The notes under the pieces: generated by a model
Databases searched by the model: none
Seen by the model: only the letters and a program-made list of their open reading frames with translations
What the model was told of the DNA's origin: nothing
Shown here: piece after piece, positions 1 through 64,000 of the stretch
Layout: each line of letters opens with the position of its first letter
Position numbering within the stretch: position 1 is the first letter of the stretch
Assembly (NCBI GenBank): GCA_040285855.1
Contig: JAUFOQ010000002.1
Coordinates: 186,001 to 250,000 of the forward strand
Source of the DNA: Eukaryota sp. GEM-RC1
Lineage: Eukaryota
Direction: 5' to 3'
Length of the DNA stretch: 64,000 nucleotides
Position numbers and translations under genes: made by a program

Positions 1-105
1 TGACCTGGTTCTGCTCACTTTTGCTATAATCTTGACAGAACTGACTATAATCTTGACAACTTCTTTTCACTTTCCCTCAAATATCTCTCTTTATTATTCA
101 TAAAT

Positions 106-1866: not shown

Positions 1867-2017
1867 AGTTGCTTTCTGATCCATTTTAGTGATATCATCA
1901 TTTCTTCGTCACTGCCTCACTGTCTCCCTCTTTATGTTCTGGACCTGGGAGTTTCTGCTTTCGTTATCACATATACTTTAGTAGTTCAAATTCTACATTC
2001 TACAGTTCACTATTGCT

Positions 2018-2309: not shown

Positions 2310-2399
2310 CACTTTTGCTATAATCTTGACAGAACTGACTATAATCTTGACAACTTCTTTTCACTTTCCCTCAAATATCTCTCTTTATTATTCATAAAT

Positions 2400-8542: not shown

Positions 8543-8544
8543 TT

Positions 8545-9790
8545 GCTCGATTGTTCGTGTAAGTTTCAAAGTGAGTGAATTGATCAATATTGTAATAACA
8601 GAAACTTTCCTTCATATCGAACCAATTGTTAATTAAATAGATGAAGGCATCACCACATTCTCGGTCATTTTCATATTTGCCTGTCATCACGTCCAAATTC
8701 CAACAAAATTCTTCTAATGCTTCACTTTGAATTACGGAGTAAAAATGTTCCATAAATATTTTCCATGCTGGATCAGAAATTCCTTTAGCGTTCTTAATTT
8801 GGATTAAATTTTGAACGATATGGAACAAGCATAAAACGTGACCGGATGTAGGAAACACTTGCCTGACAGCATTATTCAATGCCTTTTCTTTATCTGTAAG
8901 AAAAACTCCTGGATTAATGTTAATTACATCTTTAAATTGTTCCAAGGTCCAAAGATAGTATTCTTCAGTTTCTTTCGCCATAAAGACACAGGCAGCACTG
9001 AACGATGAATTTAAACACGTAAAACCAACCATATGAAACATTGGCATACCAAATGTATTTGTCTTATAAGTACTGTCAAGACAGAACACATACCGAAATC
9101 TTCTGGCAATCGGCAGTACCTCCCGGTTTACAATAAACAGGGCTTCAAGTCGGTTTTCGGCATCAGACTTAACTCGAAAGATGTACCCGTCCGCGTTTTT
9201 TCAATCAAACTGTCAATTGGCCCTCGGCCCTCCTGTGATTCCAATTTCGTTTTATAGCGGATATTTGAAATATCTTTGGCTGTTAATAAAACTGCTTCAT
9301 TATTGGTTCTTGCTTCTTTCCTGAGTTGCAACAGGATTTTTTTCGGAGTGGTGGATAGCGGGGCACACATGAGTCTTTCCAATTGATTGAGTGATACAAC
9401 TCAGAAGTAGAAGTTTTATCAGCTGCTAGCATATGTTTGTGTACTATACTTCTTGATTCAACCTTCCAAAGTTCGTCGTTGAAGTTTAAGGTACAGCTTA
9501 AAAGCACATTGCCTAACTCTTGTCTTTGAGCGACGTCGAACAATGTCATTGTTCTCATTAACACGACCAGGTCTATGGACAGAAGCACAGGAGCATAAAA
9601 GATAAACACGTCCACGGCCTTCATTACCACCATCGGTACGGAGAGAGAAACCTTTATCACCGGCCCACTTTTGCAGAGAGTTAACAGCATCTTCATAGGA
9701 TTCAAAAGACATCAAATTATTTGGAACTGGTGTTGTTGGATTGATTGTAGGGTCCTCCTCATTTAAGACGATGTTTTGATTTAAGCTCAT
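8545..9790 (-). pseudogene. MULE transposase inverted copy (variant B), truncated
   Basis: Reverse complement of copy 4 up to YTNNRA. Confidence 0.9.
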
Positions 9791-10456
9791 ATTTATGAAT
9801 AATAAAGAGAGATATTTGAGGGAAAGTGAAAAGAAGTTGTCAAGATTATAGTCAGTTCTGTCAAGATTATAGCAAAAGTGAGCAGAACCAGGTCAAATTT
9901 CTAATCCTGTTGAAGAACTGTTCAATCAATGGCGGTCTACTGAGTCAGCAGCAGACAAGGTACGGTTAGAAGAGGCTGCCAATGTGGGTTTAGCAAGGTC
10001 TGCCCATCGATACGAAGGTCCAAAAGTTCATGAGGAGAATGGTAGGGTGATGAGAACTCAAAAGAAGAAAACCGCAAGGAAATGTAGAGTGTGTCGCCAG
10101 GAAGGACATGATAGCAGAAGTCATTGTCAAAGATGTAAGAAATTCAAGAAAGATTGTGATTGTGAGCATTAGAGCAATAGTGAACTGTAGAATGTAGAAT
10201 TTGAACTACTAAAGTATATGTGATAACGAAAGCAGAAACTCCCAGGTCCAGAACATAAAGAGGGAGACAGTGAGGCAGTGACGAAGAAATGATGATATCA
10301 CTAAAATGGATCAGAAAGCAACTTGTCAAGAATCTAGTCAGTTCTGTCAAGATTCTAGCAAGAATGAGAAGCTGTCAAGATTCTAGTCATTTTGTCAAGA
10401 GCATAGTCATTTTTGTCAAGATTTTAGTCATTTTTGTCAAGATTATAGTCAAACTC

Positions 10457-12085
10457 GGTTCTGCTTCCTCATCTAACCACCACTGTCGATGAAACATATC
10501 TTTGGAAAGTCTTTGTGTTCTTTTACTGCTGTGAATACATGGAATTCCAGTTATTCTCTCAGTTCTACCTGAATATACTGAATCCACATGATTCGTTTGG
10601 CTAAAAGCAATAATTTGTAAAACCTTCAACAAAGCAAAAGATGACACGTGTCGAATTACGTTCACAAATAAAGGGGTGTTCATCAGTTCTCGGTCGACTC
10701 TCTGCTTATCAACATCAATGTTTCTTCTTAAGTCGATTACTTGATGCTCCATAGTAGCCATAACATTTTCCATAGCACTCTCCAAGTCTCTTTTGTACAT
10801 TCGATCTCCGGATTTTAGTGCATTGTGGGCGGACTCGGCTCGATTGTTCGTGTAAGTTTCAAAGTGAGTGAATTGATCAATATTGTAATAACAGAAACTT
10901 TCCTTCATATCGAACCAATTGTTAATTAAATAGATGAAGGCATCACCACATTCTCGGTCATTTTCATATTTGCCTGTCATCACGTCCAAATTCCAACAAA
11001 ATTCTTCGAATGCTTCACTTTGAATTACGGAGTAAAAATGTTCCATAAATATTTTCCATGCTGGATCAGAAATTCCTTTAGCGTTCTTAATTTGGATTAA
11101 ATTTTGAACGATATGGAACAAGCATAAAACGTGACCGGATGTAGGAAACACTTGCCTGACAGCATTATTCAATGCCTTTTCTTTATCTGTAAGAAAAACT
11201 CCTGGATTAATGTTAATTACATCTTTAAATTGTTCCAAGGTCCAAAGATAGTATTCTTCAGTTTCTTTCGCCATAAAGACACAGGCAGCACTGAACGATG
11301 AATTTAAACACGTAAAACCAACCATATGAAACATTGGCATACCAAATGTATTTGTCTTATAAGTACTGTCAAGACAGAACACATACCGAAATCTTCTGGC
11401 AATCGGCAGTACCTCCCGGTTTACAATAAACAGGGCTTCAAGTCGGTTTTCGGCATCAGACTTAACTCGAAAGATGTACCCGTCCGCGTTTTTTTCAATC
11501 AAACTGTCAATTGGCCCTTGGCCCTCCTGTGATTCCAATTTCGTTTTATAGCGGATATTTGAAATATCTTTGGCTGTTAATAAAACTGCTTCATTATTGG
11601 TTCTTGCTTCTTTCCTGAGTTGCAACAGGATTTTTTTCGGAGTGGTGGATAGCGGGGCACACATGAGTCTTTCCAATTGATTGAGTGATACAACTCAGAA
11701 GTAGAAGTTTTATCAGCTGCTAGCATATGGTTGTGTACTATACTTCTTGATTCAACCTTCCAAAGTTCGTCGTTGAAGTTTAAGGTACAGCTTAAAAGCA
11801 CATTGCCTAACTCTTGTCTTTGAGCGACGTCGAACAATGTCATTGTTCTCATTAACACGACCAGGTCTATGGACAGAAGCACAAAAAGCATAAAAGATAA
11901 ACACGTCCACGGCCTTCATTACCACCATCGGTACGGAGAGAGAAACCTTTATCACCGGCCCACTTTTGCAGAGAGTTAACAGCATCTTCATAGGATTCAA
12001 AAGACATCAAATTATTTGGAACTGGTGTTGTTATATTGATTGTAGGGTCCTCCTCATTTAAGACGATGTTTTGATTTAAGCTCAT
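10457..12085 (-). pseudogene. MULE transposase inverted copy (variant A)
   Basis: 429-aa ORF here is open across an A-run that is frameshifted in the other copies. Confidence 0.9.
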
Positions 12086-12965
12086 ATTTATGAATAATAA
12101 AGAGAGATATTTGAGGGAAAGTGAAAAGAAGTTGTCAAGATTATAGTCAGTTCTGTCAAGATTATAGCAAAAGTGAGCAGAACCAGGTCAAATTTCTAAT
12201 CCTGTTGAAGAACTGTTCAATCAATGGCGGTCTACTGAGTCAGCAGCAGACAAGGTACGGTTAGAAGAGGCTGCCAATGTGGGTTTAGCAAGGTCTGCCC
12301 ATCGATACGAAGGTCCAAAAGTTCATGAGGAGAATGGTAGGGTGATGAGAACTCAAAAGAAGAAAACCGCAAGGAAATGTAGAGTGTGTCGCCAGGAAGG
12401 ACATGATAGCAGAAGTCATTGTCAAAGATGTAAGAAATTCAAGAAAGATTGTGATTGTGAGCATTAGAGCAATAGTGAACTGTAGAATGTAGAATTTGAA
12501 CTACTAAAGTATATGTGATAACGAAAGCAGAAACTCCCAGGTCCAGAACATAAAGAGGGAGACAGTGAGGCAGTGACGAAGAAATGATGATATCACTAAA
12601 ATGGATCAGAAAGCAACTTGTCAAGAATCTAGTCAGTTCTGTCAAGATTCTAGCAAGAATGAGAAGCTGTCAAGATTCTAGTCATTTTTGTCAAGAGCAT
12701 AGTCATTTTTGTCAAGATTTTAGTCATTTTTGTCAAGATTATAGTCAAACTCTGTACTGGTATGTCGTTGTACGATCACTTCTGACTTACGTAATGTTAA
12801 ATCACCATTCAATATCAAGACAAATATTTATTTGGATCCTTTCTCAGCAGAAAACAATTCCAAAAAAACAACACTTCCAAGCAAACGTGAATGAAGATTT
12901 GGCAAAAAAACACATCATGTTTCAACAATTTAGATAGTGTGTATTAGCATTTCATCTTGGATGAA

Positions 12966-14717: not shown

Positions 14718-16717
14718 CAGGGGTCGGGAAAAAATATTTAAATAAAATAATGTATTTTTATATTGCCCAATAAATATTTTTTCAAAATATACTCTAAAAA
14801 TAAATATTGCAATAAGTAGAAAATTGCAATAAATATTTAAATATTTTATATATAACAGTATCAAAATTTTCCCCTTTTAGGGTCTTTTAGAAATAATTTT
14901 TCTTACATCGTCTTCGTTCCAAAGATCTCTGTTGTACAACAGATACAACTGCTGTTCTAAACTGCTATCTGACAGAGAACATCGGTAATCTCCTAATGTA
15001 TGCTTAGCCCTACTAAACAATCGTTCTAATACATTAGAAGTACCTGGAATCCACTTCAAATCAATGTACTTACTGGTTGGCTTGTCGGGTTGGCCAATCG
15101 AATCAAGTGCACCTTCGAAATTGGTAAGATCTGACTCTTCACTTTCGTCATTGTCGCCATCCTCTTCTTCAATATCGGTTTCTTCCACATCCTCTTTAAG
15201 AAAGGACGCAACACTGGTTTGTTCAGCTGTTGAGAGTCTGTCTTCATGACCATTTAGTATTTTGATGATAGCAGATTCAAACACAGGGCTGTGTTGTTTA
15301 CTGCTAGGATAGCTTGTGTATTGATTCATGGTGGGAAATCTTTGATGAAAAAGTTCCAGTGAAGCGTGAATTTGGTGTAAAGGAATGCTTTCCCGCTGAA
15401 GATAAAGCGTGAGCACATGAAAAGTTTCATATTGTTTCATCAATGTTTTCAAACGTTGCTGTTCACAAAAAGAAGGGACAAATTGAGTGACACTTTCGTC
15501 AAAGAGATCAAAGGACTTTCTATCAATGTATTGAAAAAATCTCTTCAACATAGCAATGGTAGACCACCATCTTGTAGAATTCCGCCTCAAAGGTCTCAGG
15601 GAAGTGTTGGTTTTCAGAACGAGAGTGTTTTTGATATGTCTCAATTGAGTGAAAAGATCATCAAGATCTTTCAAAATGGGATCTAAATCACCAGAAAATT
15701 TCTTGACTTCATTTGCAAATCTATGCGAAGCACAACCAATCAAAGGTATACACAGTATGTCTGCAAGACGGGTGTTGGTAGCACAGCTGTCTCCAACGAG
15801 AAACAGTAAGTCATCTACAGTTTTGTCATACGCTGACAACACAATAGCGATATTTTCTTTGTATTGGTCGGCACCAAATACAACGTTGGATGATTTAAAT
15901 GGACTGCTCTCGTCATAAACCTCGTCCAGTTCGAACGGAAACAGAGATAGTAAAACTGGTCTACTCTTCTGCGGAAAGCACGCAAACATCCCAACGAACT
16001 CTGTGGTTCCTGTTGGGTGCTTCCATCCGTCAAACATCAGTCCAAATTCCTCAGGCAACAACTGGGCTACCTTAGCACAAACTTCGGTGTACAAGAGTCT
16101 CATGTACTTCACCAATGTCTTAACATCAATTGGGTCAAGATTGCAGTTTTTTTGAATCATTGGATCTTGAACAAATGTAAATGCCATTTGATTCTCAATA
16201 CACCATTCCAGCCATCGGAAAATGTTGTGCGGCTTGTCTGGCAAAACAGGTGTTAAGAATCGACTGATGGTTGCGTTGTTTTTGGCGGCGATCATTTCTT
16301 CGTTGAAGTTTGGGTGGCATTTGTGTACGTGTGGCATAAAATTGGAATTATCCAGTTCTTGGCTGAATATACAGGGGGAATCATGTTGGGACAAAGACGA
16401 CATTGCCAAGCTTCTTTGTGTTCAGGGCAGTTGTTTGGGGTTGGAGTAACCTTCCGAAAGTAGAATTTGGCCGTATCCTTAGGCTTGAGAGACATAGCAA
16501 GAAGAGAATAGTTGAAATGAACTTCACATCTTCTGTTATGTATCATTTTCTTCATCTCAACAAATCATTTATTTTTACTCCAAAAAATAAATATTGCAAT
16601 AAATACAGTATTGCAAAAGATTAAAATAAATATTTTTTATCTACGTGTACAAAAAATAAATATTTTTCATGAAAAATATTTAAATATTGCAATATAAATA
16701 TTTTTTCCCGACCCCTG
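14718..16717 (-). mobile_element. hAT DNA transposon
   Basis: TIR CAGGGGTCGGGAAAAAA; perfect 8-bp TSD AATGATGT (14710-14717, 16718-16725). Confidence 0.93.
14877..16495 (-). CDS. hAT-family transposase (one frameshift near the 5' end)
   Basis: WQCRLC...H..H zinc finger split by frameshift; FDGW, VGDSCATN, GCASHRF, TRW, GTSNVLERLFS. Confidence 0.88.
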
Positions 16718-18586: not shown

Positions 18587-18781
18587 TCTTTTGCGATAAA
18601 TGAACTTGTGTTTTTCAGATTAAGAAGAGATTTTTCACATAGTATAGGTGGGGTGTAGCACAGAAAAGGAAACAATGAACAAAGTTCTAGTTGAACTTGG
18701 TGAGAGAATCATTTTGAAAGCAGAAAGGGCGGCAAATCTTGAAGTCAAGTTGAGTCTTTTTCACTTACAAAATCCTTCTTC

Positions 18782-20118
<1,337 letters not shown>

Positions 20119-27654: not shown

Positions 27655-28136
27655 CAGTGTTCGAAAATTTTCCACCCGGACGTCACCCGGGTGGTGGATG
27701 GAACCGGGTGGCGTCCGGGTGGTTTTCATTTCCACCCGGGTGGTCACCGGGTGGTAATAAAGTACGAGACATAAGTTTTGGTGCAAAAACTACTTTATAC
27801 ACCATATACAATGAAACTGCAAGTACTTTAGCAGTGTGTGATATAAAATAACTAACAATGAAGTACTTTGTTTAGTTTTGGGATTAGAAAAACCCTCTGA
27901 AAAATAAATAAATAAGATGATATTAGCCTCTCCGAGCCTAGAAATACCTCCCGTTAAAATAATTGTATTCAGGACACGTTGAACAACGAAGTATGTATTC
28001 AGGAAGTCATGGATTGAAGATGATGGTAAGACCAAAATTATCCACCCAGTACCACCCAGACACCACCCGGGTAGTGGGTGGCACCGGGTAGCTCCCGGGT
28101 GGTTTTCATTTCCACCCGGGTGGTTTTCAAACACTG
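27655..28136. mobile_element. hAT MITE with CACCCGG subterminal repeats
   Basis: TIR CAGTGTTyGAAAA; perfect TSD CTTAATTG; same terminus as at 39403. Confidence 0.92.
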
Positions 28137-33309: not shown

Positions 33310-35851
33310 TATAGATGGGAGCCGGCTCAAATTTTGCTCACGGCTCAGCTGCAGGTACTAGTTAGCCGGCTATGGCTTCCAACATAGTTTAGCCGGCTCA
33401 AGCCGGCTTTAGCCGGCTCAGCCGCAATGAGTTTGATGTAGATTTATTGTTTAACTGTTTTGTCAAAGCATATGCTTTCAGTGTCTTCTCTTTGATAGAT
33501 TTGTTTTATGTGGTTCATTATTGTTATACATAAATTCTACCCTATTCTTCAATTATCGCTACTCTACTCATCGTCTTTCTGATCTTCTTCGTTCAAAAGC
33601 CAGCACCGCAAACACATTAATGCAGTTACCGTGGTGTCATCTAACCGGGAACGCTTCTTAGTTATTACGTTACCAGTTTGTGAAAACAATCGTTCACTAC
33701 TAACGGAGGTCGCTTGAACAGCTAACATATCCCTTGCAAATTTGCTCATCAGAGGAAAGTTTTCAGAGTTTACTCTCCACCAATCTAAGGGATTGTCATT
33801 CTCGGCCGAAAACATAGAAAGATACGTATGTAACTCCTTTTCAACTGATAGATCCTCAGAGTCAGAACGTTCATCTGTGGTACTGTTCTGGGACACAGAT
33901 TCTTTGATGATCTTAAGCTTAGCTCTGAAGGATTTGGTCTTCTTTCTCACTTCTCTTCCTCCATTTTCACTGCTATACTCCTCCTGAAGGCGTGTTAATA
34001 GCAGATGTCTAACTTCCTGCAAGTTCACATGCGTTGGCCACATTAAAGGACTTAACTTGATAGACGGATCCATCACAGTTGCAATCTTGGTCGTGTCATT
34101 CAGTACATTGGCATCGTACTTAGCAATGATTTTCTTCATAAAGATGCTACAAAAACCGGTTACTTTGTTTGGATATACCTCACTCAATTCCTGCATCTTT
34201 TTGTGCAGGTCTGACTTCCGGCGAATATTCTCCAATTCTGCCAAATTGCTGTTTAGTACTCCTTGGCCAAATTTGGCAATTTCAACATCTAGCACTTCTT
34301 TTATGGTTTCCCAATACAGAATTGTATGGGAAATTGTCACGTCAGATGCAGATGAAAGATCGGTTGTGATATCATAGAATGGTTTCAACAGTTTCAACAG
34401 CTTTGACAATGTTACTGTTTCAAAGTCAGATAATATTAGTTCAGTAATTTGCTCATTTTGTAAGAAGTAATTAATGATAGCCAACTGGTCGTGATACGTT
34501 TTTAGCATGAGATATGTACTATTCCAGCGAGTAGGAACGTCAGAGGGAATTCTTTGAAATTTTTGCCTGTGTCTTTGGCGCAAGTTTTGAGCTTTTCATT
34601 CAATGAACTGGACATATGGGTTTTAGACGTCAATTTTTGAATCTTAAGTATACTGGCTTGTATAAAGGGCAATCCATTCTGGACCATGATGTTTAAAACA
34701 TGAGCAAAGCATCGCTGATTTTCAGACCTTTCGTTCAGTAAATCAACTGCATTCACAATGTTCCCAGCATTGTCAGTTGTCCATGATTGTGTCTTGGTTT
34801 GAAGCCCATAATCAGCAATAATGGTGTTCAGTTTCGCTGAAATCATTTCTGCGGTATGCGGAAAAGGCAAGTAAGAGATATCGAGAGTGCATGTAAGTAG
34901 CTCATATGCGTCATTAATGTAGTGGCCTACGACAGAAATATAGGGTGTCCCATTATTTGAAGTCCACAAATCGGACGTAAGAGACATCTTCGAAGTGTTA
35001 AGTGCCAGCGTTTCTTGAAGCAATAACTTTTTTTGTGCGAATAAATTCAATATCGTATCCGTAATCGTTTTTCTGCACGGTAGACTCACAGACGGTTCGT
35101 AAAACTGAAGGATCTTCAAGAGAGTTGGAGATTCAATGTACGACAATGGATGTTGATCAGCAAGAATATGATCAACAATGAGAGGAATTACTCCACTTGG
35201 ATCTTTTTTGAAGGAGCGTTCTGTTGGCTGAAGATATTCAGTTATTTGTCGACTCTTTTTAAGGGGAGGAACTTCAGATTCATAGAGCTTATTATGGTGC
35301 TTTCTCACATGAGAACGCAAGTTACCTGTGGCTGTCGATGACTTGTAGCGCTTAGAGACACAAAATTTACATTCGATGGTTTCAGTACGCACTTCTATAT
35401 CACCATTTGGGAGTTTCTTGGCCGCCTGTTGGAAGAAAGGAGCAATATCTTTGGGAAGAGGCTTGAGGAGTTCTAAGGAAACTATGTCGTTGGAAGAGTT
35501 GCTTTGAGATACTTCTATAGGTTCTTCATTGTCAGAGACCAAAGTAATGTCCATTGCAAATTGATGTGAAGAATGTAAACTGCTGATTATTGTGCTAATG
35601 TTGATAAAGATTATTTTTATAGAAATTCTTTAGTTTTAATATTTAATGTCCTGCAATGTTATGTTTGTATCAATTCATGAACGAATTATAAATATTTCAG
35701 CTGTCAAAAATGAAATTTCAATAATCGGCTTGAGCCGGCTAAAAGTTATTTGAGCCAGCCGGCTTGCAGCTGGAAATATTTCCAATTTGGGACAGCCGGC
35801 TGGCTCGGCTAGCCAGCTGAGCCGGCTAAATTTAGCCGGCTCCCATCTCTA
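33310..35851 (-). mobile_element. hAT (Ac-like) DNA transposon
   Basis: TIR TAkAGATGGGAGCCGGCT; AGCCGGCT subterminal repeats; perfect TSD GTGAAAAG. Confidence 0.95.
33564..35554 (-). CDS. hAT transposase with BED finger (frameshift ~34570)
   Basis: CKFC...NLRSHVRKHH; SDLWTS, TTDNAGN, CFAHVLN, TRWNST, ATSVSSERLFS. Confidence 0.93.
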
Positions 35852-37570: not shown

Positions 37571-37611
37571 GTGTAAAATTTTGAATTGCTAAACATATGA
37601 CAGATTTAAAC

Positions 37612-38296
37612 CATACCTAGGAAATACAGATACACTGTATTCTGTATTTGTATCTGTATCCTAACATTGCTTTGTATCGTGTATTCTGTATTCTGTGTAT
37701 CTTGTGTATTTTCTTACAAACCCTTCAATTGAAACTGACAATGAAGCTCCCATCTATCTACTGCATTAATAAACAGCGTTCACAAAATGGCTTCAAGGAT
37801 TAAAAGTCATCAAATGTATATCCAACTCGAAATTGTTGGATGAACATACACAATAGCATTTGTTTTTTCCTTATTCCTCAATGTTTGTATGTTCTTTCCA
37901 ATCATCCCACTGTTCTGAAAGCAACACCTCATTTCGGTGTACCGAAGAATAATTTAAAGAAGGAGGGAAACCTCATTATAACAGGAAAAGAAGTTTTTCG
38001 ACTAACAGTCACACTGATGATAACTGAGTTTTGAAGGAATTTACTTCCTCAGACTTCAACTGACATCAAAATAGATGTACAATGTATCTGTGACAAATTT
38101 GGAATACATGGGATACAATATATATTTAACAGTGTTTATGATACAAATTTGTCTAACAACAACCAGAAGTACAATGCCAAGTCGACAGTCGAATCTTGTG
38201 ACTAATGATGTCTTTTTATCTGTATCTGTATTTTTGTATATGTATTCTGTATCTGTATCTGTATTTGGAAATGTGTTTGTGTATTTCCTAGGTATG
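37612..38296. mobile_element. hAT MITE with TGTATy repeats
   Basis: TIR CATACCTAGGAAATACA; TSD ATTTAAAc/g. Confidence 0.85.
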
Positions 38297-38313
38297 ATTT
38301 AAAGTTTCGTCGT

Positions 38314-38370
38314 AACGGAGTGAATCAATACTCAGTTTAAATTTTAAACTGAGTATTGATTCACTCCGTT
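38314..38370. repeat. Perfect 57-bp palindrome
   Basis: 28-bp arms AACGGAGTGAATCAATACTCAGTTTAAA with a 1-nt centre. Confidence 0.95.
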
Positions 38371-39402: not shown

Positions 39403-40863
39403 CAGTGTTCGAAAATTTTCCACCCGGACGCCACCCGGGTGGTTTTCTATTCCACCCGGGTGGTCACCGGGTGGTCTAAAAATGAGAGACACTTTTTCAT
39501 GTTCTCCTCGATACACTTGTACTCATACATGCATCCGTATAACTCTCATCACTCACCCTAAAACTCCTTTCATAAAAGCAAAATACTTTATTCTAATCTA
39601 AACATTGGAACCATTCATCTAACATCTCCTCAGTCATTATGATCACGAACTTGTAGGTTCTGATGGAAACAAGGGTCAAAGAGTTCCATATCGTCATCAT
39701 CTTCGTCATCATTGACTTCAGCTTGTACTTGTCTCACAGGAACGTCTTCTACTTCTTCTTCTTCCTCTACCTCCATCTCTTCATACATTTCCACAATCTC
39801 TTCCGCCATCCATTGTGGGAAGTCCTCACGTGCAACTAAAAGCTTCTTTCGGAGTTTAAGATTGCAATAGACAAAAACGAGAGACTTCAGCAATTTTGTA
39901 CTCATTCTATTTCTTCTTTTGTTCATGATAAATCCAAATGCTGGCCAGTTTCTTTCAGCAGAAGATGCAGATGAAATTTGTCCCAACAACTGCGATGCTA
40001 CTGTTTTAAGTGGACTATCAGTTCCATGTAGCTTCCACCACTCATAGGCTGGTTGCTTCTGGGCTTCTTCCCAGATAAATGGATCATCGTAGTAAGGAGC
40101 CTTTTGGATCATATAATTTTGAAAGTCGGTATTGGCCTTTTCATAATCTTCTTTGCTGAGAACAGAACTAAGATATTCCCTCATAATCCTTAGGTAGTTC
40201 ACTAATCTTTCGCCTGAGTACCCCGCTAGTTTGGATTGGTTTTCAGGGTCCAACAAATGAGCAGTAATATGTGCTCGGGTTAGAACAGCATCCACTCGTT
40301 TCATTTCTATCGTCAATTGAAATCCAAGTCATGGTTCTGAGCAAGTCCAAAGTATTGTTGTACGCAGCGGCAGTTCTGTTCAGCAGTTTCCCAATATATG
40401 GAGTATCTTGATCAGAAAAAAGGATCAAATCGGCAAATGGTTTGAACAAATGAGAAATTTGACCTATTTTGTCCCAAAACGAGTACTGGCCAATACAAGG
40501 CAGAGACTCTATGTCTTTAACATGATGTAAAATTTCATGCATCTGCATCTTTTTTTCATGTGGCAACTTTCCAATCATTGCCAGAACATCGCTATGAAGA
40601 AGAGTAGTAATTACTGCATTCTTACACTCAATTATCCGTTGAAGCAATAAAAACCGAGTATAAAATCTGGTTTCTCCTGGAAAAAGTAATTTTTTTCTGA
40701 AATCTGATTAAAAACATCACGTGAGGTCTTGTGATTTCGAATGAATTTGGCAATTTTTTTTTTGCAATGTCAACGAGATTTTTGATGGTGGGAATACGTC
40801 CTTCTACATTGGTTAAAGCAAGATCGAAAGTATGAGCAGCACAAGGAAGCCAGAAAACTTTTC
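39403..40863 (-). mobile_element. 5'-truncated hAT transposon (3' TIR plus C-terminal half of the transposase)
   Basis: TIR CAGTGTTCGAAAATTTTCCACCCGG at 39403; VFWLPCAAHTFDL, PGETRFY, AHLLDP, SSASSAERNW in shifting frames. Confidence 0.88.
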
Positions 40864-40956
40864 ACACATCTTCCTTAATTACTCTACAAAATCCGAAGGC
40901 AATACAGTATACATTTCTGCATACTCCCTCCGGGGAAAGCTATACTACGTTACTAA
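40864..40956 (-). ncRNA. Candidate Fanzor omegaRNA scaffold
   Basis: Directly 3' of the Fanzor stop: CCGGAGG-g-AGUAUGCA-GAAA-UGUAUACU-guauug-CCUUCGG nested hairpin with G.U pairs. Boundaries inferred. Confidence 0.6.
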
Positions 40957-43900
40957 CTACGAGAGATATTCAGGTCTTCCTCTCCCTTCTCTATACCCAT
41001 CTACTATTCTCAACATATTCAAACACGCAAGCTGATTACGATTCCAATACTTTCTCTCACTTGATCCTCTACAATTCTCGCTTCGACATTCAAGTAGATC
41101 ATGACAAAGCACTTTTGGAGTTTTTTCTCTTCTGTAGGGTCTTGGATTCTCGATCTTGTGGAACTTCTTCACCTCACTTTCACAATCTGGGCAGCAACTG
41201 GATGTTTTCTTTTCATTCAATAAAACGACTTCAAATCCATTTCTTCTCAAGAAAGACCGCCATCCGATTCCTCTTGTCGGTCTGTGATGTTTCAAATTCA
41301 CTTGACCATTTGCCCCAAAATCACCCATACAGATCAGTAGTTCTTCTCTTCTTCGTCCAAAAGTCGATTCGAGTGACTTCAACAACCAGGACTCTACTTT
41401 CTGCTTATGGATGTAGGAACGCATTTTTTGGATGCGCCATAAGGCAGAACAGTAAAACCAAGCGGTTGAAGTCACTTGTTTCATTTTGGCCTGGACCCAA
41501 GCTTCGAGATCAGCAAACGTGGCAGATTTTGGACTTAATCCTGAAAGCAAGCTATCAGTTTCTTCAATTGTGAGCGGTGGAGTACTTTGAGAATCTTGAT
41601 TTGATCTGTTTCTTGATGGTCTAACTTTGAACTTTCTTCTGGCACCTTTTAGCAGGTGTTGTTGCTTTCTTGCTACCACAGTCCATTTGCATTGTGTCAG
41701 TCGCAGCCAATTACACTTGTTTTCTTGAATTTGTTCTTCATTTCTTCCACCAAAATAAAGTAGATCCCTTTTCCAGGGTCACAGACAACTACTTTTTTTG
41801 TTGTAAATTTTTCTGCTCGCATGTCTTTACAATAAACTTCTTTAATCTTTCCTTGTAAATCATCCTTACCTCTTTTTTCACCAGCAAAGTCGCGCCTAAC
41901 TAGCTCAATTGAACAGTTTTGGCCGTCACTGTGGATAATGTTGTTGAACACATAATCTTTCTTTTTGAACTCTTTTAAATCGAAGTTTACAAACATTTTC
42001 CAAAAATCATGTTGGTCTTTTGGTTTGAACTTGGTCACCTCTGCTTGGTTGTTCATTAACTTCAGATCCTCGGTTTTTTTGTTTTGCCTGACGATACTCC
42101 ACAAAGTTCTAGTATCAATAGGAAAGTAGCCTGGAATTACCGTGGTTACAGCGGGAAACCAGTGAAAAGCCGCTTCTTCTTTCTCCTTCACATAACGATT
42201 CATAGTTATGGCTGCCGGCATGAATAATTGAGGCTTTTTTCCAGTTCCGAAATTTTAGTAAATGGTCGAAGCACTCTTAATTCAAAAGGAGGTGATCTCT
42301 GCAAAATTTCAAATTTTTCAACGACATACGGGTAAATAAAGGCATCGTATAAAAGTCTTGTTCGTGAGGTCTCACTCCTTTTTCCCCCTGCTTTGTCCTT
42401 CCAATCTTCTTCAAACTTTTCTAGGCAAAATTGATTTGAAAGGAACAAGTTGAAGTTATCGACAGATTCAGCAGTAAAAATGTCTTTAATCTGTCGAAGA
42501 GCAAAACGATACAAAGTTAAAGTTTGTTGACAATCAGGTCGTTCTTCTCTTGGCAGCTCTTTAATTAAATTTGAAATTTCTTCTTCAGACTGCTTTTTTC
42601 CAAAATATACGTTAATGAAACGATTAATCTGTTTTTCAAAGTGGAGTTTCAAGTTGTTGTTAATGTTACACAAGAGCACTGGAGCAATGTATTCTGGTGG
42701 TCTAGAGAAGCCTTGAGGAGGAAACATTGGAAAGTTATGGCCTTCATTTGCTTCTAACTGAATACGATAGCCCTTGTGAATTGAGTTGCTGTCGAATTGT
42801 GCTTCTCCCATGACAAATCGTTCTAAGTCCGCATCAATTGCACTACTGGGCCGTTTATAGGGCTGACCATAAAATTGGGCACAAAGATAATTTATTCGAG
42901 TCATTACAGACGTAATCATTTGTTCAGTAATTTCAGGTAACGCTTCTCCACGTTCAAATCTTGCTGTTAAAAACAATTGCAGGCATTGTAGAGTATGGCG
43001 ACGAAGTTCGTGAAATTGAGGTGCTAGCTGCACAATGTTTTCAAAGACATCACGATGCTTCAAAATTCGTGGAAGAGTAGACTTTACCATCCTATAAGTT
43101 GGAAGAAGAAATTTTTCTTTCTGGAATAGCATACAAAGTTTTAAAGTTAAGTTGGCGTGTTGATAATTGTAATCAACTAAGAGAGAGACCAGTGTACTTT
43201 CACACCAACAATCAATGGGCAATAAATTTCCAAGTTCCTCCTTCTTAAGTTTGAGACAAAATTCGTGTATCAGATTTCGTGTAAGAGATGGTAAATCATT
43301 TCCAAATTTCATTGTGAGAAAACGTTTTGCGAACAATAAAGTATCAAGTATCAAGTATCCGTGTTTATTTTTAACAACTTCACGCCAGTTTTTAGATAAA
43401 AGATTAAGGTTGGATTCTTGGAAATTAACAGGCCATTGGAACTGATAAAACTGGAAACGCTTTTCCAAAACTTTGAAGTCAAATCCAATAATATTGTGAC
43501 CAGTAATGAAATTTGGCTGGTAATCTTGAATCACGTCTATCAATATATGGAGCAGGACCAACTCATTGGGCACAACATAGATTTCAGTTCTTGGGGATAA
43601 ACTGCATTCAATTGGAGAAGGTAGGTTTGTTGCACAAAGGTTGACACAGATAATAATTGATTTTTCTTCGTAAAAATTTTCTTCATTAAAACGGCCAAAT
43701 ATTAATGCAACTGACATAACTTTTTGGCTAGCAATCCATCGATCATGTTCTTCTGAATTCATCTTTTTTAACTTCAGCGATTCCTTTCCTCGAAGCTTAC
43801 TTAATTCCTCCGTAATAGCTGTTGGAATTTCATCATCATGATGCATTGTCTCCAGGTCAATAGACATAATTTTTGGAAGAGCATAAGTATTAGGGTGTTC

Positions 43901-44774
43901 TTGAGCACATCCGAATTCAATCAAATTCTGTTTTTCGTTGTTGTCATGTGGCTTAATTTTCCTCAAAGCTTTGAGACAAGATTTCTTAGCAGGAAAAACT
44001 CTATTAGACAGGCGTTGTCCATTAATTTTCAAGGGAGCTCTCCGTGATTTGGCCTTAACTTGAGCCTTTTTGGCAACTCTTGCTAAAATTTCGAGATCGG
44101 ACATTGGAGGACTAGAACTACTATCAACTCGACTTTTTTTTAACAGGGGGGAACAATGGAAGTCGAATCATCAAGTCGAATAAAAGGAAGACTCAATCTT
44201 GTACCGATGGGATCAGAATTGGGATTAGATTGTGGACCTGGATTGGATTCCACATCACCATCAGACGTAAGATCAATTTTGAACTGCAGTCTACAATCAA
44301 AACTGACAGAAATTTGCAAAAACGACACTTCAATAAAATTTCACCACCACCACCAAAACCACCACCACCACCGATCCACTGAATTTTACAAGGAGGCAAG
44401 TTTGGGGGCTGGAAAGCAGTGTGTTGCCCTGGTGGTTCTATCACCATGCTGGGCATGTAAAAATGATAGGCCTGACTGCCAAAAACAACACACATACTCC
44501 CATAAAAAACCCTCGACTTCGAAAAAATAAAAAATTTGGATTGAATTGGATCAATGACCAAAAATGCCTTCCTTGGGGTTTTGCTTGAACAATGATGCCT
44601 TTGAATAGCATATTGCCGCCCGGTCCCACCCAGGCTGTATGGATACAAGATATCTACAGAAGTTGCTTCTGTAGAATTCCACCTGATTTGATAGGATGAC
44701 TTTCCCACCAAAAACAGGCCTCTCATAGCCGTCGAATCAATGAACATCGACATGTGAGCAAAAAAATGGACCAT
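40957..44774 (-). CDS. Leader-2A-PolB exonuclease-Fanzor1 polyprotein (four 1-nt breaks)
   Basis: 2A GDVESNPGP; Exo motifs SIDLET, GHNIIGFDF, YNYQHA; Fanzor motifs NNNLKLHF..INRFIN, FP.....PGYFPIDT, IHSDG..CSI, VCDPGK.DLLY, GDFG, NEKKTSSCCPDC, C....C, WNRN.LACLNM, RPEYL. Confidence 0.8.
43130..43875 (-). other. Family-B polymerase-type DEDDy 3'-5' exonuclease domain, in frame with the Fanzor N-terminus
   Basis: IMSIDLET (ExoI), NELVLL...P.FITGHNIIGFDF..L..R (ExoII), LDTL, YNYQHANLTL (ExoIII, D>H); no stop or frameshift before TYRMVKSTL. Confidence 0.8.
44233..44274 (-). other. 2A (StopGo) ribosomal skipping peptide
   Basis: DLTSDGDVESNPGP matches the consensus D(V/I)ExNPG|P. Confidence 0.88.
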
Positions 44775-44810: not shown

Positions 44811-47391
44811 CAGGGATTCCTAAAGTAGTCAACTTTTTCAGAATTAAAGTAAAGTAGTGTACACTACTTTACTTTATACTTTACTTTACTTTACACTTTA
44901 ACATACTTTAAGAATGTATAAAGTGATCCTGCATCTTACAATTTTGTTCTTCAATTATCTCTTCAGTTTTATGACATCTCTTCCTTCCGAGGAATGGAAA
45001 ACTCTCTGTGAAGTAGTGGAAGTAGTCTCTAGCACATGTGCCCGGTTCCGTTGTAAGCTGTGTGACGTCGTTCATTCTGTCAACAGGTGGACAATGGAAG
45101 GACATTTCTTACGTGACCTACCTAAAAAGCGTCCCATCTCGCTCTGTTCCAACATTGGACCTCCTGGTTCACAAAATGCGCTCAATGTTGCTGCTCTTAG
45201 AAGATACGTAGAGACTCATTCCCGGGGGCGTAAGCGGAAGGCTTCTCAACAGTCTACACCTGAGACGAAACGAAATGACCTACAGCCCTTTCTTTCTCCC
45301 GTTCCTGAACCTCCTGTCGATGAATCATCTACTGTGGTTGTCATCTCTGAGTCTGATCCAAATACATCATCTCTTTCTCCGACTTCTGCTGTCACGGCTA
45401 TTCCCCAGCCAACAATTGAAACTACTATTCCCATTGCAACTTCCCCCCAAGATCTGTAACTTAAAGCAGACAAAACTAAAGAAATTTTATCAAAAAAGTA
45501 GCAACCAAAATCTAGATGAAGTTGTTGCTCTTTATGCTCTAGGAGAAGGATTACCACTCACTAAAGTTTCTAAATCGACAAGGCTGCAAAATGTTATTGA
45601 AGGAGCTGTCGAGCATTATAAGCTGTACAACGAAGTTTTTGAATTACCATCTTATCAGAAATTGATGGACACAGTGGCTCCCAAAATTATTAAAAATGTT
45701 AAAAGACAAAGTACAGTCGACATTGCTACCCTTTGCACTGGTTGGACTTTAGTTATAGATGGATCAGAGATAAATTATAACAGTTTAATTAATTTCTGCC
45801 TTGTTGGTCCAAACAGGACAATTTTTTACAAATGCATTGAATGCAATTATCAGTCAAAGACTGCAGATTTCCTTAAAAATCTTTTTGTTTCAGTTCTCAA
45901 CGAAATTGGTCCTGAATATGTAAATTTTGTCATTACCGATGGAGCAGCAAATTATTTAAATGCAGCAACAGCTGTCCAAGATGTTTTCCCAGCCATCACA
46001 AGGATGCGGTGTAGCATTCACACACTCAATTTGTTTTTAAAGGACATTTGCTCGCCGACTTCAAATTACGTTGTGCCTTCAATTCGAAGTATTGTCGAAA
46101 AAGCCAACAAAGTAGTTGATTTTGTTGTTAACAAGCCTTTCATCCGGAAGCTTTTGAAAAAGTCAACCCAGAAGAAATTAAAACGAATTTGTTTGACACG
46201 ATTTTACACTCAATTCATCGTCATTGAAAGAGTACACGAATTGTACCAAAATGTCAATAACACTCTCACGAATGAAGACTATATCACCTGGCTTGCTAAG
46301 CCACAACAAGCTAGAATTAGAGAAGTATCTGCTGAGGTCAAGCTAATAGTTGCCGATGATGATTTTTGGGTTCAGGTAAAATTATTAATTGACTTCTTAC
46401 GACCAATCATTGACTTAATGCTGAAAATGGACAGTCTAACGCCAATTATGGGAAAATTGTACCGATACCTCGAATTGGAAGATCTGAGGTTATCGACAGC
46501 TCAGTTATCCATCCTAGAACCAGGTGAAATTGATAGCATAAGAAGTCGATTTCAGGTTCGAAAGAACCAATTAGCACATCCTTGTGTTAAAGCTGCATTC
46601 TGTTTGGATCCTGAAAACAGAAACATTGTCAGACTGAGTCGATACCTTGACTGTAGGAACGCACTTTTTGGTCTCATTGAACAACGGTTCGGTGAACGTA
46701 AGAAACCAGATGTTTTGCAACAGTGGAATGAGTACTTAGTTGGAACTGGGGAGTTTGAACATGAAGCAATTTTTCTTAATGCAAGGAAACAATCTGCTCA
46801 TAACTGGTGGTATGCCAATGGAGGGGACCAAGAATTATCTCAATTGGCAGTAAAACTGCTAAGTAGTGTTGCCTCCAATTCAGAAGCTGAAAGAAACTGG
46901 TCTGACTTCAGTGTTGTCTGTACCAAAGAGCGATCCAGACTAACAAGTGAGAAAGCCAGTGACTTTGTGATGATCAAACACAACCTGAAGAGGGGAAAGA
47001 TAATGAGTAGAAAGTTCTTTGACTGGATTGATGAAGAAGTTCTTGGTCCTGAGCTTGACAATTTAGAGGTCACAGATGATGAAGAAGTACAGCCTGTGGT
47101 GGAGGAGATATTGGTTCCTGAGTAATCTGTAGAAGAAGTGAAAACTTGAGTGCTCACCCACTCTTGATATGTATAGTTTAGATTTTGTAGTTTTTGGTGA
47201 GTTTCTACTTTATAAAAGTTGTTTAAATTCCTACTGTCGAAAGGAATAGATGTATACGGGATGGCTGGAGCAACCCTAGCAATCAAGAAAGAAAGTGCTT
47301 AAAGTGCTTAAAGTACTGAAAATATCTTAAAGTAAAGTAAAGTAAAGTAAAGTAAAGTGCTTAAAGTACTTTACTACTTTAAGAATCCCTG
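44811..47391 (+). mobile_element. hAT DNA transposon
   Basis: 19-bp TIR CAGGGATTCyTAAAGTAGT; perfect TSD GTCTACAG; AAAGT subterminal repeats. Confidence 0.95.
44971..47125 (+). CDS. hAT transposase (frameshift ~45445)
   Basis: CKLC...H...C finger; VIDGS, ITDGAANY, CSIHTLNL, TRF, AFCLDP, SNSEAERNWS. Confidence 0.92.
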
Positions 47392-51140: not shown

Positions 51141-53350
51141 ATGATCGATACTGCTAAGTTTATTGCCGAAAACATTCGTCCCTATGATGGTGATGCCTCC
51201 TTTCTTGCTGGTCCAACCCAAAGAACCAAGGAATTGATGATCAGAACTGCTGAAATCCTCCGCGAAGAACTCCAGAAAGGAATCTATGACCTTGACATTG
51301 TCCGTCCAAGTACAATCACCTCCCATGGTCCTGGTTATCTTGACAAGACCAAGGAAACTATTGTAGGATTCCAAGGGGAAGCTCCTCTACAAAGAACGTA
51401 TGACTCTAGTTGACTAACAATAGTATGAAGTGTGCTGGAGGTGTCCGAGTTACTGCAACAGCTTGCAAGTCTTATGGCTACACAATGAACACAGAAACTG
51501 AAAGAGTCTTTACTGAATACGCTAAAACCCACAACGATGGTGTCTTTGACATGTACACTGCTGAAATGCGTGCTGCTCGTAAGTCTGGTATTATCACAGG
51601 TCTTCCTGATGGATACATGCGTGGTCGCATCATTGGAGACTACAGAAGACTTGCTCTCTATGGACTTGACCGCATGATCGCTGAGAAGAAACACGACAAG
51701 GACAATCTCCCCAAGACAATGACCGAAGACAACATGAAACTTCATGAGGAAGTTAGCGAACAGATCAAAGCTCTCAAACAAGTCAGAGTAATGGCCCAAT
51801 CCTACGGTTATGATGTTTCTCAACCTGCTAAGAATTGCCAAGAAGCCATTCAATGGACCTACTTTGGATATCTTGCCGCTATTAAGCAAGCAGACGGTGC
51901 AGCCATGTCTTTTGGACGTCCAGATGCTTTCTTTGATTACTTCATTGAAAGAGATCTTGATGCAGGCACATTTACTGAAGAGCAAGTTCAAGAATTCATT
52001 GATCATTTTGTAATCAAACTTCGTCTTGTTCGTCATCTCAGAACTCCAGAATACAATGATCTGTTTGCTGGTGATCCCACCTGGGTCACGTGTGTGCTCG
52101 GAGGCATAGATCAAAGTGGTCAACACATGGTCACTCGAACCTCGTACCGTATTCTCCAGACTCTCTACAACTTAGGTCCTGCTCCTGAACCAAATCTCAC
52201 TATTCTCTGGTCCCCTAAACTGCCAAAGACTTTCCGTGATTTCTGCTCTCAAGTTTCCATCGACACGTCATCAATCCAATACGAGAACGACGACATGATG
52301 CGTCCTATCTATGGTTCCGATTATGGTATTGCTTGTTGTGTTTCAGGTATGGCTCTCGGAAAACAAATGCAATTCTTTGGTGCTCGATGTAATCTTGCTA
52401 AACTTCTTCTCTACACCTTTAACAATGGAGTGGACGAGGTCACTGAACAACAAGTAGGTCCTCAATTGGGATCCCCTGTTGACGGTGATGTTTTGGACTA
52501 TGACAAGGTCTGGAATTCTCTATCAAAGTACATGGATTGGCTCAGTGAGTTGTACGTTAATACTATGAACATCATCCATTACTCTCATGACAAGTATGCT
52601 TATGAATCATCAATGATGGCTTTCCATGATACTTTTGTTGAAAGACTCATGGCCTTTGGAATTGCTGGACTCTCAGTTGTTGGTGACTCTCTGTCTGCTA
52701 TCAAGTATGCTAAGGTTTATCCAATTAAAAATGAAAAGGGTCTAGTAGTTGACTTTAAAACTGAAGGCGAGTTCCCCTGTTATGGAAATGATGACGACAG
52801 AGTTGATTCAATCGTAGTGTCTCTGTGTCACGAGTTCATTTCCCGTCTTAGAAAGTACCCAACCTATCGAAATTCAACTCACACTCTCTCTATTCTTACC
52901 ATTACTTCTAACGTTGTCTATGGTAAGAAGACTGGTAACACTCCTGATGGTAGAAGAAAGGGCGAACCTTTTGCACCTGGTGCTAATCCTTCTCATAACC
53001 GTGATTCTACAGGAGCTATTGCTTCTTTAAACTCTGTTACCAAGATATCCTATGATGATTGTCGTGATGGAATTTCAAATACGTTTTCTATTCTTCCAAA
53101 TGCTCTTGGTAAGTCCAAAAGTGAGCAAATCTCCAACCTATCTGCCATGCTTGATGGGTATATTCTACAAAAGGGTTTCCACATTAACGTCAATGCCGTT
53201 CGAAGAGAAGTTTTGATTGACGCCATGGAACATCCTGAGAATTATCCCCAGTTAACAATAAGAGTTTCTGGCTATGCTGTCAACTTTAATAGGTTAACTA
53301 GAGCACAACAAGAAGAAGTTTTGGCTAGAACTTTCCATTCTCATATGTAA
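51141..53350 (+). CDS. pflB: Pyruvate formate-lyase, 2 exons (51141-51397, 51424-53350)
   Basis: [23 protein letters not shown] catalytic Cys pair, RVSGYAV glycyl-radical motif. Confidence 0.96.
51398..51423 (+). other. 26-nt spliceosomal intron
   Basis: GTATGA...ACTAAC-AATAG; removal joins the two PFL ORFs in frame ([14 protein letters not shown]). Confidence 0.88.
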
Positions 53351-61382: not shown

Positions 61383-64000
61383 CTACCTCTTCTCTCTTTT
61401 CGAGTTCCTTGTTCTCTTGGCTACAGGTGACTTAGCTTTCTGAGATTGCTCGCTGGATACTCTTTTCTTCTTAGGCCTGTGGACAGTGGAGTCATTACTA
61501 CTATTACTATTTAATTTAATAAACTCTGAGTATGCTTTCGTATTCGTGATGTCTTTTAGGGGAACTGCTGAGTGTTCGCCACCAAACCAGACTACTGTGC
61601 AATACTCGCCTTCAGGGGTATCATATCGATCAAGGACTTTGACCAAGATATGCTCTTCAGTATCACCCGAAGCAACAGCCTTGTGAAGTTCATCATCATT
61701 GGGTAAATCTGTCTGATAGATCTTGCATTGATGGATGCTTGCTTTACCAACGTGACCAGTGATCAAATTCTTGATAGACATGGAAGTATTGGAATCAATT
61801 GACATTACTAAGAATGGTCCACAATAACTACCATGTAGCTTGGATGACTTAGTTGCCTTGAGCACAAGGTCCCCTGCCTTAAAGGGATTAGGTTGAGATT
61901 TCTTAGAAGGAGCCTTACTCGATTGTCGAGCCCCTGCCTTTTCTCTCTTTTCTTTAAGGCGTTTCAGTTTCAGAGCCATGTCGTCGATGAACGAAATTTC
62001 CGAAGTGGAACATTCGATCGCTTTTAACATAGTACCGGGGTCTGCACCTGGGCTTATGTCGCTACCAAACATCAACTCGTAGGGGGAATGTCCCGTTACA
62101 CTACTCTTAGTTGAATTGATTTGGAGCTGAACCGAAGGAATGTATGTTGACCAATTGTCGTAATCATTGAAATCTACAAGAAGACGGCGTAAACTTTGCA
62201 GCACGTCTCTATGTCGTCGTTCCACCAGACCATTACTCTGGGAGAAATGAGGAATCGATCGACTGACTTCAATGGCCAGTAGGTTGCAAACTGCCTCGAT
62301 TGTAGCGTTAGCAAACTCCTTGCCGTTATCACTATGGATACAGAACGGTATACCAAAAATAGCTATTACATCCCAAACCAGGCGATATGCTACTTCAGTG
62401 CTATTCAGATCCTTAAGGGGGCTTAAAATGGTGTATCTGCTGAACGAGTCAACAAATACCAGTAGAAACTGGTTTCCATTTTGATCTTTTGGCAGAGGTC
62501 CTATTGTGTCGACGTTAAGTCTTGCAAAAGGTCGATTAGCCCAGAGAGAACCCGTCGGCTCAATTGCCAGTTTACGGACAGGTGCCGTTTTCTGACAGGA
62601 TGGACATCGATTCACGTGGTTGATCATGTCAACCTTCATGCTAGGCCAAAAGTAGCCACTATTGAACAGCTTTTCCAAACTATTTTTCAAGTTAGGGTGA
62701 CCAGACTGGACGAGTCCGTGGAGCATGTAGAGGACTTTCTTACGTAAGCTCGACGGTATCAGTATCTTATTCTTGCTGTTAACGTAAGTCTTGCTCTTAG
62801 GAAAAGGTTAGCTTTTGTGAATAAAGTGTCTTTTGCTTTTTTTTGCCGTTAGCTGCTCAGCTCTGATGGTTGATAGCCATGAGTTGAACAGGGGCAACTT
62901 GCCATCTGTTGAAAGTTCACGGAGGTTGCTAATTACATAAACTGAGTTGTCATGTGGTTGAGACTCGATGTAGTTAGCTTCATCATATCTCAAATCATTA
63001 CGATTGAGTGTGATGTGATCCTCGGTGTGACGTTCAATCAGATTTACTGATTTGATTGTTTCCACTGGATTGCGGTCAATAACGCGAGAGAGCATGTCAG
63101 CCCAGTGGTTGTCTTCTCCTGCAACGTGTTCAATCTCAAAACTAAACTCGGATAAGATGGGGATCCAACGTTTTACGATCCTATTCTTTTCTGGAGCGGA
63201 TATGAGAAAGGAAAGGTTCCTGTGATCACTGAAGATCACCAAGTGTCTACTTATGAGGAAGCTTTCTAGGTTTGATTCAGTCAGAATCAGCAAGATTGCG
63301 TACAGCTTTTTCTGGATAGCTGACCAATTTTGCTGACTGTCGTTAAGGAGTCGGCTATAGAAGGATACCGGTTTTACCTTGCGATCCTTCAGTGGAGTGC
63401 CGGGTGGAGCTGGGGGTTTTCTTCCTGCCAGATGACTCCTCCTACGGCGATGTCCGAAGCGTCTGTCGATATGATAATGTTCTTATCTTCGTCAGGTAAG
63501 TCTAGAGCCATGTTATTGATTATCAACCGTTTTATTTCGTTTAATAAGTTTTCATGTTCGTCTGTCCAGTAAATCTTCTTTGGTTTGTCTCTGGTTAGTT
63601 TAATAATCGGTGACATCAGGTCCGAGAAATTCGGGATCCAATCACGGATGTAATTCAACGCACCAATGAGACTTCGAACCTCAGGAAGTGTCTTGGGGGA
63701 CGGTAGACTCTTTAAAGCCGAGACCCTACTCTCGTCAATGTGACGGGTTTTGTTCACAAAGTCGCTGCCTAGAATCTTTATTTTATGACTTGAAGTCGTG
63801 AAATGACACTTCTTTAAGCCAAACCGTACTCGGTAGCGTCTGGCGCGTTCAAGTACGTTTGCGATTCTTGAAAGAAACTCTTCGAAGGTGTTGCCAATGA
63901 CAATTATATCGTCGATATAGATGAACACACCTTCACAACTGAAGATTTCCATCATGATGTTTTGGAAGATTGCAGGTACATTCTTCAAACCAAAACATGC
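61383..64000 (-). mobile_element. Ty3/Gypsy LTR retrotransposon pol (RT-RNase H-integrase), runs off the window
   Basis: YIDD; TDAS, SDHRNL, NHWADMLSR; H..H..CPSC, VDT, SDNG, NGLVER; chromodomain-like tail. Confidence 0.95.

Follow-up and report, generated by a model that had tools for sequence, protein, structure and literature searches.

A candidate omegaRNA scaffold behind an exonuclease-bearing Fanzor1 gene, followed by hAT transposase DNA

What does a Fanzor nuclease aim at when the DNA behind its gene belongs to another transposon? The question is raised by a stretch of 64,000 nucleotides from Eukaryota sp. GEM-RC1 (contig JAUFOQ010000002.1, positions 186,001 to 250,000; hereafter the window), in which a Fanzor gene on the minus strand is followed by a short hairpin and then by hAT transposase sequence. 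A first-pass annotation proposed that the hairpin belongs to an omegaRNA with a hAT-derived guide, which could mean homing into, or attack on, the hAT family. Our analysis favours a plainer account: the hairpin is probably part of the scaffold with which a multi-copy Fanzor1 element ends on its right side, and the hAT DNA behind it is probably an ordinary, copy-specific flank that would serve as the default guide. The more novel result appears to be the protein, whose clade of Fanzor1s combines a PolB 3'-5' exonuclease domain with a 2A-like motif and a catalytic D-E-N triad.

A Fanzor1 gene and its exonuclease domain

The gene at 40957..44104 (minus strand), which lies in three frames in the assembly and ends on a TAG codon at 40959-40957, is a genuine Fanzor1, in agreement with its first-pass label as a Fanzor. 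The solved structures closest to its C-terminal piece are PpFz1 of Parasitella (E 1.4e-29) and SpuFz1 of the Spu-1 elements of Spizellomyces (E 2.8e-23). The RuvC-I DPG motif, a Fanzor1 feature (PMC10711439), is present as VCDPGK with its Asp codon at 41780. The RuvC-II Glu (41214; E189) and a C4 zinc finger (C196, C199, C231 and C236) are conserved in the alignment, and a Glu about six residues ahead of such a finger is likewise described as a Fanzor1 feature (PMC13565253). A structure model of the intact relative P0163 (pLDDT 72.5), standing in for the window's gene, has the Fanzor1 fold (WED, REC, RuvC), and its top seven matches are the Spu, Pp and Gt Fanzor1 proteins. The layout of fold, RuvC and zinc finger is thus like that described for SpuFz1 and PpFz1 (PMC10432273, PMC11423790), whereas the window's protein has ~380 extra N-terminal residues that include the exonuclease domain, a 2A-like motif upstream, and Asn as its third catalytic residue. 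This Asn (41037) stands where WNRD has an acidic residue. It is found in 10 of the 11 rows of the clade, the remaining row being without the region; outside the clade the position is Asp in 38 of 49 rows, the motif is absent in 11, and Asn occurs in none. The same D-E-N triad is active in GtFz1 of Guillardia theta (PMC11423790, section 7). GtFz1 is, however, less closely related (it shares 15% identity with the modelled P0163) and has a longer, multi-stem RNA, and an exonuclease is not among the features given for it in the sections of PMC11423790 used here.

Among 1.84 billion representatives searched, 1232 matched at E 0.001 or better, of which the best 150 were listed. The ten close matches whose source was traced are all from organisms named Eukaryota sp. 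GEM-RC1, TZLM1-RC or TZLM3-RCL, names that a preprint gives to free-living anaerobic metamonads (10.1101/2023.05.03.539051). The genome harbouring the element is thus likely that of a free-living protist. In a quick tree of 60 rows, drawn from the window and the top-ranked listed matches of at least 150 aa, 11 rows fall on one side of a branch with an SH-aLRT of 99, P0040 forming a long branch within that side. The N-terminal piece falls in a 90% identity cluster of seven members, the window protein and six models named GEM-RC1; hence, the element is multi-copy and young in GEM-RC1 or a very close relative. No related loci were found in viral, metagenome or prokaryote contigs. A second Fanzor family of the clade (the P0022 cluster) has four models in GEM-RC1 that are ~50% identical to the window's protein.

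Is the gene intact? Six single-base shifts interrupt its frame, every one at a homopolymer run. The window's beta-tubulin, a control for assembly quality, also has a break at a homopolymer (T) run, and the assemblies of the named relatives are described as Nanopore reads with short-read correction (10.1101/2023.05.03.539051). Together, these observations make assembly error the likely cause of the breaks. Two genes that we take to be beta-tubulin and a pyruvate formate-lyase-like gene (18743-20118 and 51141-53350) are split over frames. The break directly after the RuvC-I Asp (41772-41769) is common to all three family members that reach that point, and may reflect an error of a systematic kind, inactivation of the whole family or a programmed -1 shift. 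Furthermore, none of the seven models of the window's family contains RuvC II/III. Because of this absence and the common RuvC-I break, the family may be truly dead. In relatives from related genomes the reading frame is intact and full-length.

The PolB 3'-5' exonuclease domain spans 43170..43860 (minus strand; Pfam PF03104, E 5e-16). As we take its motifs to be defined, motifs I and II are intact in the window's family and the Asp of motif III is replaced by His; all three are complete in P0005, P0019, P0162, P0163, P0179 and P0182. Six relatives (P0019, P0162, P0163, P0165, P0170 and P0179) carry the exonuclease and a complete Fanzor in a single gene model. A profile built from six clade members matches 15 of the 197 collected proteins, all of them from GEM-RC1, TZLM1-RC, TZLM3-RCL or the window, and only one of the 17 proteins of at least 700 aa among the matches listed. 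The P0163 model matches PolB polymerases weakly (E 0.001-0.006), the exonuclease part of the model being less sure. A single-sequence fold of P0165 was discarded (pLDDT 33.5).

Upstream of the nuclease gene, at 44233..44274 (minus strand), lies a 2A-like (StopGo) motif, DLTSDGDVESNPGP, assigned by what we take to be the 2A consensus. The same motif occurs as DVEANPGP in P0170, P0179 and P0182, three of the 197 collected proteins. A frame of 193 codons with no Pfam or Atlas match (44193..44774, minus strand) overlaps the 2A frame and is possibly the first part of a polyprotein; Atlas searches with this frame or with P0163 gave no usable match. Within it, in the 5' part of the element, lies a second one-strand hairpin (44680-44719, minus strand, -18.6 kcal/mol). 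A weak, Ulp1-like protease match, below the Pfam cut-off in P0170, follows the 2A-like motif in that protein and precedes it in P0182, and by this placement polyprotein modules are apparently shuffled between families.

Our literature search, which covered search listings and openly readable papers, found no report of an exonuclease-Fanzor fusion. The word "exonuclease" occurs nowhere in the main text of PMC10530073, PMC10711439 or PMC13565253, and the fusion is absent from the searchable supplements of PMC10432273 and PMC10530073. We consider it probable that the fusion, taken alone, represents a natural exonuclease-coupled RNA-guided nuclease that is active in at least some of the relatives. 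For the fused exonuclease, we predict a role in trimming either the cut ends or the RNA.

The hairpin and the start of the guide

The hairpin, 41 nt long, lies at 40893..40933 on the minus strand, 23 nt from the Fanzor1 stop codon. Refolding recovered the structure noted at first pass: a GAAA-capped stem of 8 bp (40925-40906, one G.U) enclosed by a 7-bp basal stem (40933-40927/40899-40893, one G.U). The earlier argument that the G.U pairs favour the Fanzor sense strand agrees with the computed energies, which are -16.6 kcal/mol for the sense strand and -6.4 for the other. The hairpin has a z-score of -4.4, with 1 of 300 shuffles equally good for a segment picked after the fact. Wider folds are not significant (z -2.0 at 171 nt; -0.5 to +0.3 at 100-190 nt), and no second stem folds significantly beyond the 41-nt hairpin. 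A long alternative fold, 40968-40880, was rejected (z -0.85). A sliding local fold of both strands from 12.8 to 64 kb, with a span of up to 45 nt, yielded 25 clusters of equal stability, 22 of which are two-strand palindromes; the hairpin is one of the other three, which fold on one strand. By our own arithmetic (two others per ~102 kb of strand), the chance that such a hairpin lies within 100 nt behind the stop is ~0.2%.

A Fanzor1 omegaRNA is expected as a folded stretch immediately 3' of its gene and in the sense orientation, and the hairpin lies at such a place. From this position and from the systems described in PMC10432273 and PMC11423790, we regard it as quite probable that the hairpin is part of an omegaRNA scaffold. 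As one of only three one-strand hairpins of this stability in 51 kb, it is a credible scaffold element, and the first-pass proposal of an omegaRNA stands to that extent. An Rfam search gave two matches, both at chance level (E 5.7 and 7.9), and hence no family for the hairpin. A scan for bacterial promoters and terminators, which is not applicable to this DNA, found nothing.

Could the hairpin instead be a DNA-level end signal, of a rolling-circle or Helitron-like kind, or a 3'-end RNA element? Fanzor1s have been described in Helitrons, which have terminal hairpins and one-ended transposition (PMC3627910). Furthermore, unlike the SpuFz1 and PpFz1 elements, the window's element has no inverted repeats or target site duplication (TSD) that we could find: no inverted match to 40853-40964 exists within the window. 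A separate hAT of another family, with a clean 8-bp TSD, is inserted upstream (44811..47391, plus strand) and obscures the element's left end, which may have been lost or hidden by this insertion. However, the G.U pairs and the GAAA loop favour an RNA of the sense strand, and the end sequences of Fanzor1 elements are described as coinciding with the scaffold (PMC10711439), so the two roles are compatible. We judge an end signal in place of a scaffold to be very unlikely.

Where would the guide begin? In SpuFz1, a 75-nt scaffold located between the stop and the element's right end consists of U5-C6-C7, stem-loop 1, a linker of 6 nt and stem 2 (U35-A75), the distal part of which is dispensable; stem 2 adjoins the guide, a variable flank of 14-15 nt (PMC10432273). 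Three structures show a stem-loop 1 of 7 bp (PMC11423790, section 5), and a short GUURUCGC loop is common, by eye, to five Spu and two Pp omegaRNAs (PMC10432273, supplementary file 5). The window is like these systems in having a short structured RNA candidate right behind the stop, with the guide expected from the flank, and its hairpin resembles both SpuFz1 stems: its 41 nt equal the length of stem 2, and its UCC and 7 bp are like stem-loop 1. The UUUCC directly 5' of the stem (40934..40938, minus strand) likewise fits both the 5' UCC of Fz1 omegaRNAs and the UCCC that ends the SpuFz1 linker ahead of stem 2. An alignment with the SpuFz1 RNA through the codons after the RPE motif was rejected, the SpuFz1 scaffold lying behind the stop codon.

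These likenesses lead to two registers, in which the guide would start at 40852 or near 40892; by sequence it would be hAT or hAT-like in either. In register 1, the hairpin is stem-loop 1, the scaffold is ~87 nt long with a 19-nt linker, and the candidate guide is 40838..40852 (minus strand), which matches three uninterrupted hAT models at the protein level. The identity junction at 40852 favours this register, and only this start matches known hAT copies. Against it, the short GUURUCGC loop is replaced by a 27-nt extension, the last stem, ending at 40853, reaches only -1.1 kcal/mol, and guide positions 4-9 are predicted to be paired (unpaired probability ~0), the seed pairing with 40876-40870. 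In register 2, the hairpin takes the place of the terminal stem, and 40878..40892 (minus strand) is the candidate guide, with hAT-like codons that differ from those of the three uninterrupted copies. This register is favoured by the 41-nt length, by the distal extension and by hAT-likeness from the hairpin foot onwards. A weak candidate for its stem-loop 1 (40941..40959, minus strand) has a CG at the SpuFz1 spacing of 15 nt ahead of the stem; 64 of 831 background stems have one at that spacing too. Against it, this stem-loop is weak (z +1.0), and the hAT must be a chimera. We tentatively hold register 1 to be possible and, with more reserve, register 2; a boundary at neither place accounts for the remainder. 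Whether the count begins at ~40892, 40852 or 40842, the 15 nt that follow are coding DNA of a hAT or of hAT-like kind. The first-pass statement that the guide would be hAT sequence thus holds, in this wider sense, at each of these boundaries, but its start at 40861, 9 nt before the identity to other copies and 31 nt past the hairpin foot, fits neither register.

The hAT flank: junction, cargo and homing

The DNA behind the hairpin comes from a hAT of the DUF659 type, of which it comprises the 3' half and the terminal repeat (39403..40852, minus strand); it is frame-broken and has a short deletion relative to P0197. The DUF659 and dimerisation domains, short terminal inverted repeats and an 8-bp TSD, the last two seen at the ends of a miniature relative (MITE), identify it as a hAT. 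Its 5' half is absent from the window, including the 23 kb upstream; neither this absence nor the Fanzor1 frame breaks had been mentioned at first pass. A search with the hAT frame, stops read as X, found one cluster among 12 candidates, with three GEM-RC1 models whose N-terminal halves are uninterrupted, so that, of the intact hAT copies which the first-pass annotation proposed looking for, uninterrupted N-terminal halves exist as gene models. These models read KILMKEHQKHGLT-WLPCAAH (...KHGLT-WLPCAAH). Identity between the window and these models covers 32 of 32 residues starting with the Trp codon (40852) and does not extend further back, GLT in the models standing against KVF in the window. 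Likeness to the DUF659 profile nonetheless reaches back, ungapped, to ~40888, 4 nt from the hairpin foot: the score climbs stepwise from 14.7 to 23.6 bits over 12 codons and then reaches a plateau, about half of the gain coming from two residues and some from an edge effect, with an estimated chance of ~1 in 100-200. The switch to hAT at KVF (~40861), as first annotated, therefore coincides with neither boundary. The 12 ambiguous codons between the two (40853..40888, minus strand), one an in-frame TGA, may be diverged hAT or the 3' part of the scaffold. They form a hairpin of their own of only -1.1 kcal/mol (z +0.33), and no model in the hAT frame cluster search carries their sequence. With gaps, 40853-40892 resembles the MITE end (top 0.6% of tiles), a likeness that was rejected, as it includes the MITE's flank and unrelated tiles score higher.

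Two conflicting boundary signals, 36 nt apart, would fit a deletion or recombination that joined the Fanzor end to the interior of a hAT, leaving a dead right end and no working guide. Also consistent with this possibility are the missing 5' half of the hAT, the deletion in the hAT copy itself, and a 7-bp stem (40876-40870 with 40849-40843) that spans the junction, as a join by microhomology could leave. However, 25 of 200 shuffles are as good as this stem, which therefore lacks significance. Both the hairpin and the end of the gene are intact, and identity of the hAT half to other models is 97-100%, which would make any such event recent. We consider a dead end unlikely.

Alternatively, the hAT 3' half and its terminal repeat could be fixed cargo, forming the element's own right end and giving all copies one guide. 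The hAT end at 39403 is intact, and the missing 5' half would be expected. Furthermore, a published survey describes a frequent association of Fanzors with hAT ends and has hAT as the commonest Fanzor1 neighbour (PMC10530073). In contrast to the arrangement of that survey, where hAT ends enclose the gene, the window has a 5'-truncated transposase downstream. No matching hAT left end exists upstream within the window, the hAT C-terminal cluster has three members where the Fanzor cluster has seven, and the locus numbers of the two are unlinked. Fixed cargo is, in our estimation, highly improbable.

A third possibility is that the element homed to a conserved transposase motif and that its guide cuts intact members of the hAT family. 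The 40852 junction lies at a conserved W-x-P-C-A-A-H block, the three uninterrupted copies fit the register-1 guide at the protein level, and the D, E and N residues of the triad active in GtFz1 are present. Restorative and non-restorative homing into element-free homologous sites has been proposed for TnpB, in which a flank-derived guide likewise directs cutting at the element-free site (PMC13565253); in contrast to that system, the flank here is a multi-copy eukaryotic transposase, and extra targets are possible. We found no case of a flank-derived guide in a multi-copy eukaryotic transposase in the literature searched.

Other observations speak against homing. One half of the target, the hAT 5' half, is missing on the upstream side of the element over 23 kb. 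Judged indirectly by locus numbers, which take in the annotated models of these clusters only, none of the six other Fanzor models lies within 370 locus numbers of any of five hAT models (373-3739 away), so there is no sign of several copies at one site. The uninterrupted hAT copies, three empty sites, are unscarred at the protein level, with no amino-acid change across the site. In addition, guide positions 4-9 are those predicted to be paired in register 1, and register 2 matches no known copy. Since hAT coding DNA makes up 11% of the window, it is unremarkable that one of seven Fanzor copies lies beside a hAT (~56% if the window is typical).

The MITE at 27655..28136 (plus strand, 8-bp TSD) does belong to the flanking hAT family, as first reported, sharing 41 nt with the hAT end at 39403 (97.6%). 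It holds no transposase sequence and is hence not a guide target; the candidate guides have no match with fewer than three mismatches elsewhere in the window. The first-pass idea that the guide would target intact hAT members thus keeps its footing in the uninterrupted N-terminal halves and loses it for the MITE and for the guide as then drawn. Homing into, or attack on, the hAT family fares worse, and we regard targeted homing as improbable. We think little, too, of the chances of a combined scenario in which a lineage of Fanzor1 in anaerobic protists uses a 2A-released exonuclease fusion to cut and resect, with its guide aimed at a live multi-copy hAT, and so homes. Chance adjacency, later rearranged, explains the Fanzor-hAT data best, cargo and targeted homing each being disfavoured, and a hAT-derived guide is most likely an accident of position rather than a means of targeted attack.

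The scaffold-and-flank account that we favour, and hold to be more likely than not, starts from what the window and its relatives contain: a Fanzor1 gene, the hairpin, six near-identical models, and hAT or hAT-like DNA behind the hairpin. We propose that a transcript would run through the end of the Fanzor1 gene, and that the Fanzor1 protein, provided that the frame breaks are assembly errors, would bind the folded scaffold. Some 15 nt past the terminal stem would then serve as guide for putting the element back where its own site is empty, in line with what has been reviewed for OMEGA systems (PMC13565253). Any cuts in other hAT copies would come as a side effect, in register 1 only and only if those copies carry the TAM. 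The loss of the hAT 5' half would reflect rearrangement of the locus.

Mobile DNA in the window and the meaning of the locus

Recognisable mobile DNA makes up ~45% of the window. A further three hAT transposases, together with an integrase region that is Gypsy-like, lie at 14877-16421, 33564-35629, 44811-47391 and 61383-63955. Positions 1-12760 form a head-to-tail array of a 2.29-kb unit, >99% identical, with a transposase frame that is MULE-like from the look of its sequence; the orientation flips at ~8543. Either amplification, both tandem and inverted, or an artefact of the assembly may account for the array. A near-perfect palindrome of 57 nt (38314-38370) lies just past a repeat element at 37605-38303.

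What is the significance of a guide made of transposase DNA? Taken from the flank, it is an expected by-product of a Fanzor and modest on its own. Nonetheless, this one locus leads to a prediction of defined additional cut sites within a hAT family that is young, and could thus serve as a natural test of the role of Fanzors in eukaryotic genomes. The protein has a wider bearing. Exonucleases have been fused to Cas nucleases by engineers to change repair outcomes. This clade, with its intact full-length members, 2A-like motif and clade-wide D-E-N triad, appears to carry an exonuclease-nuclease fusion naturally.
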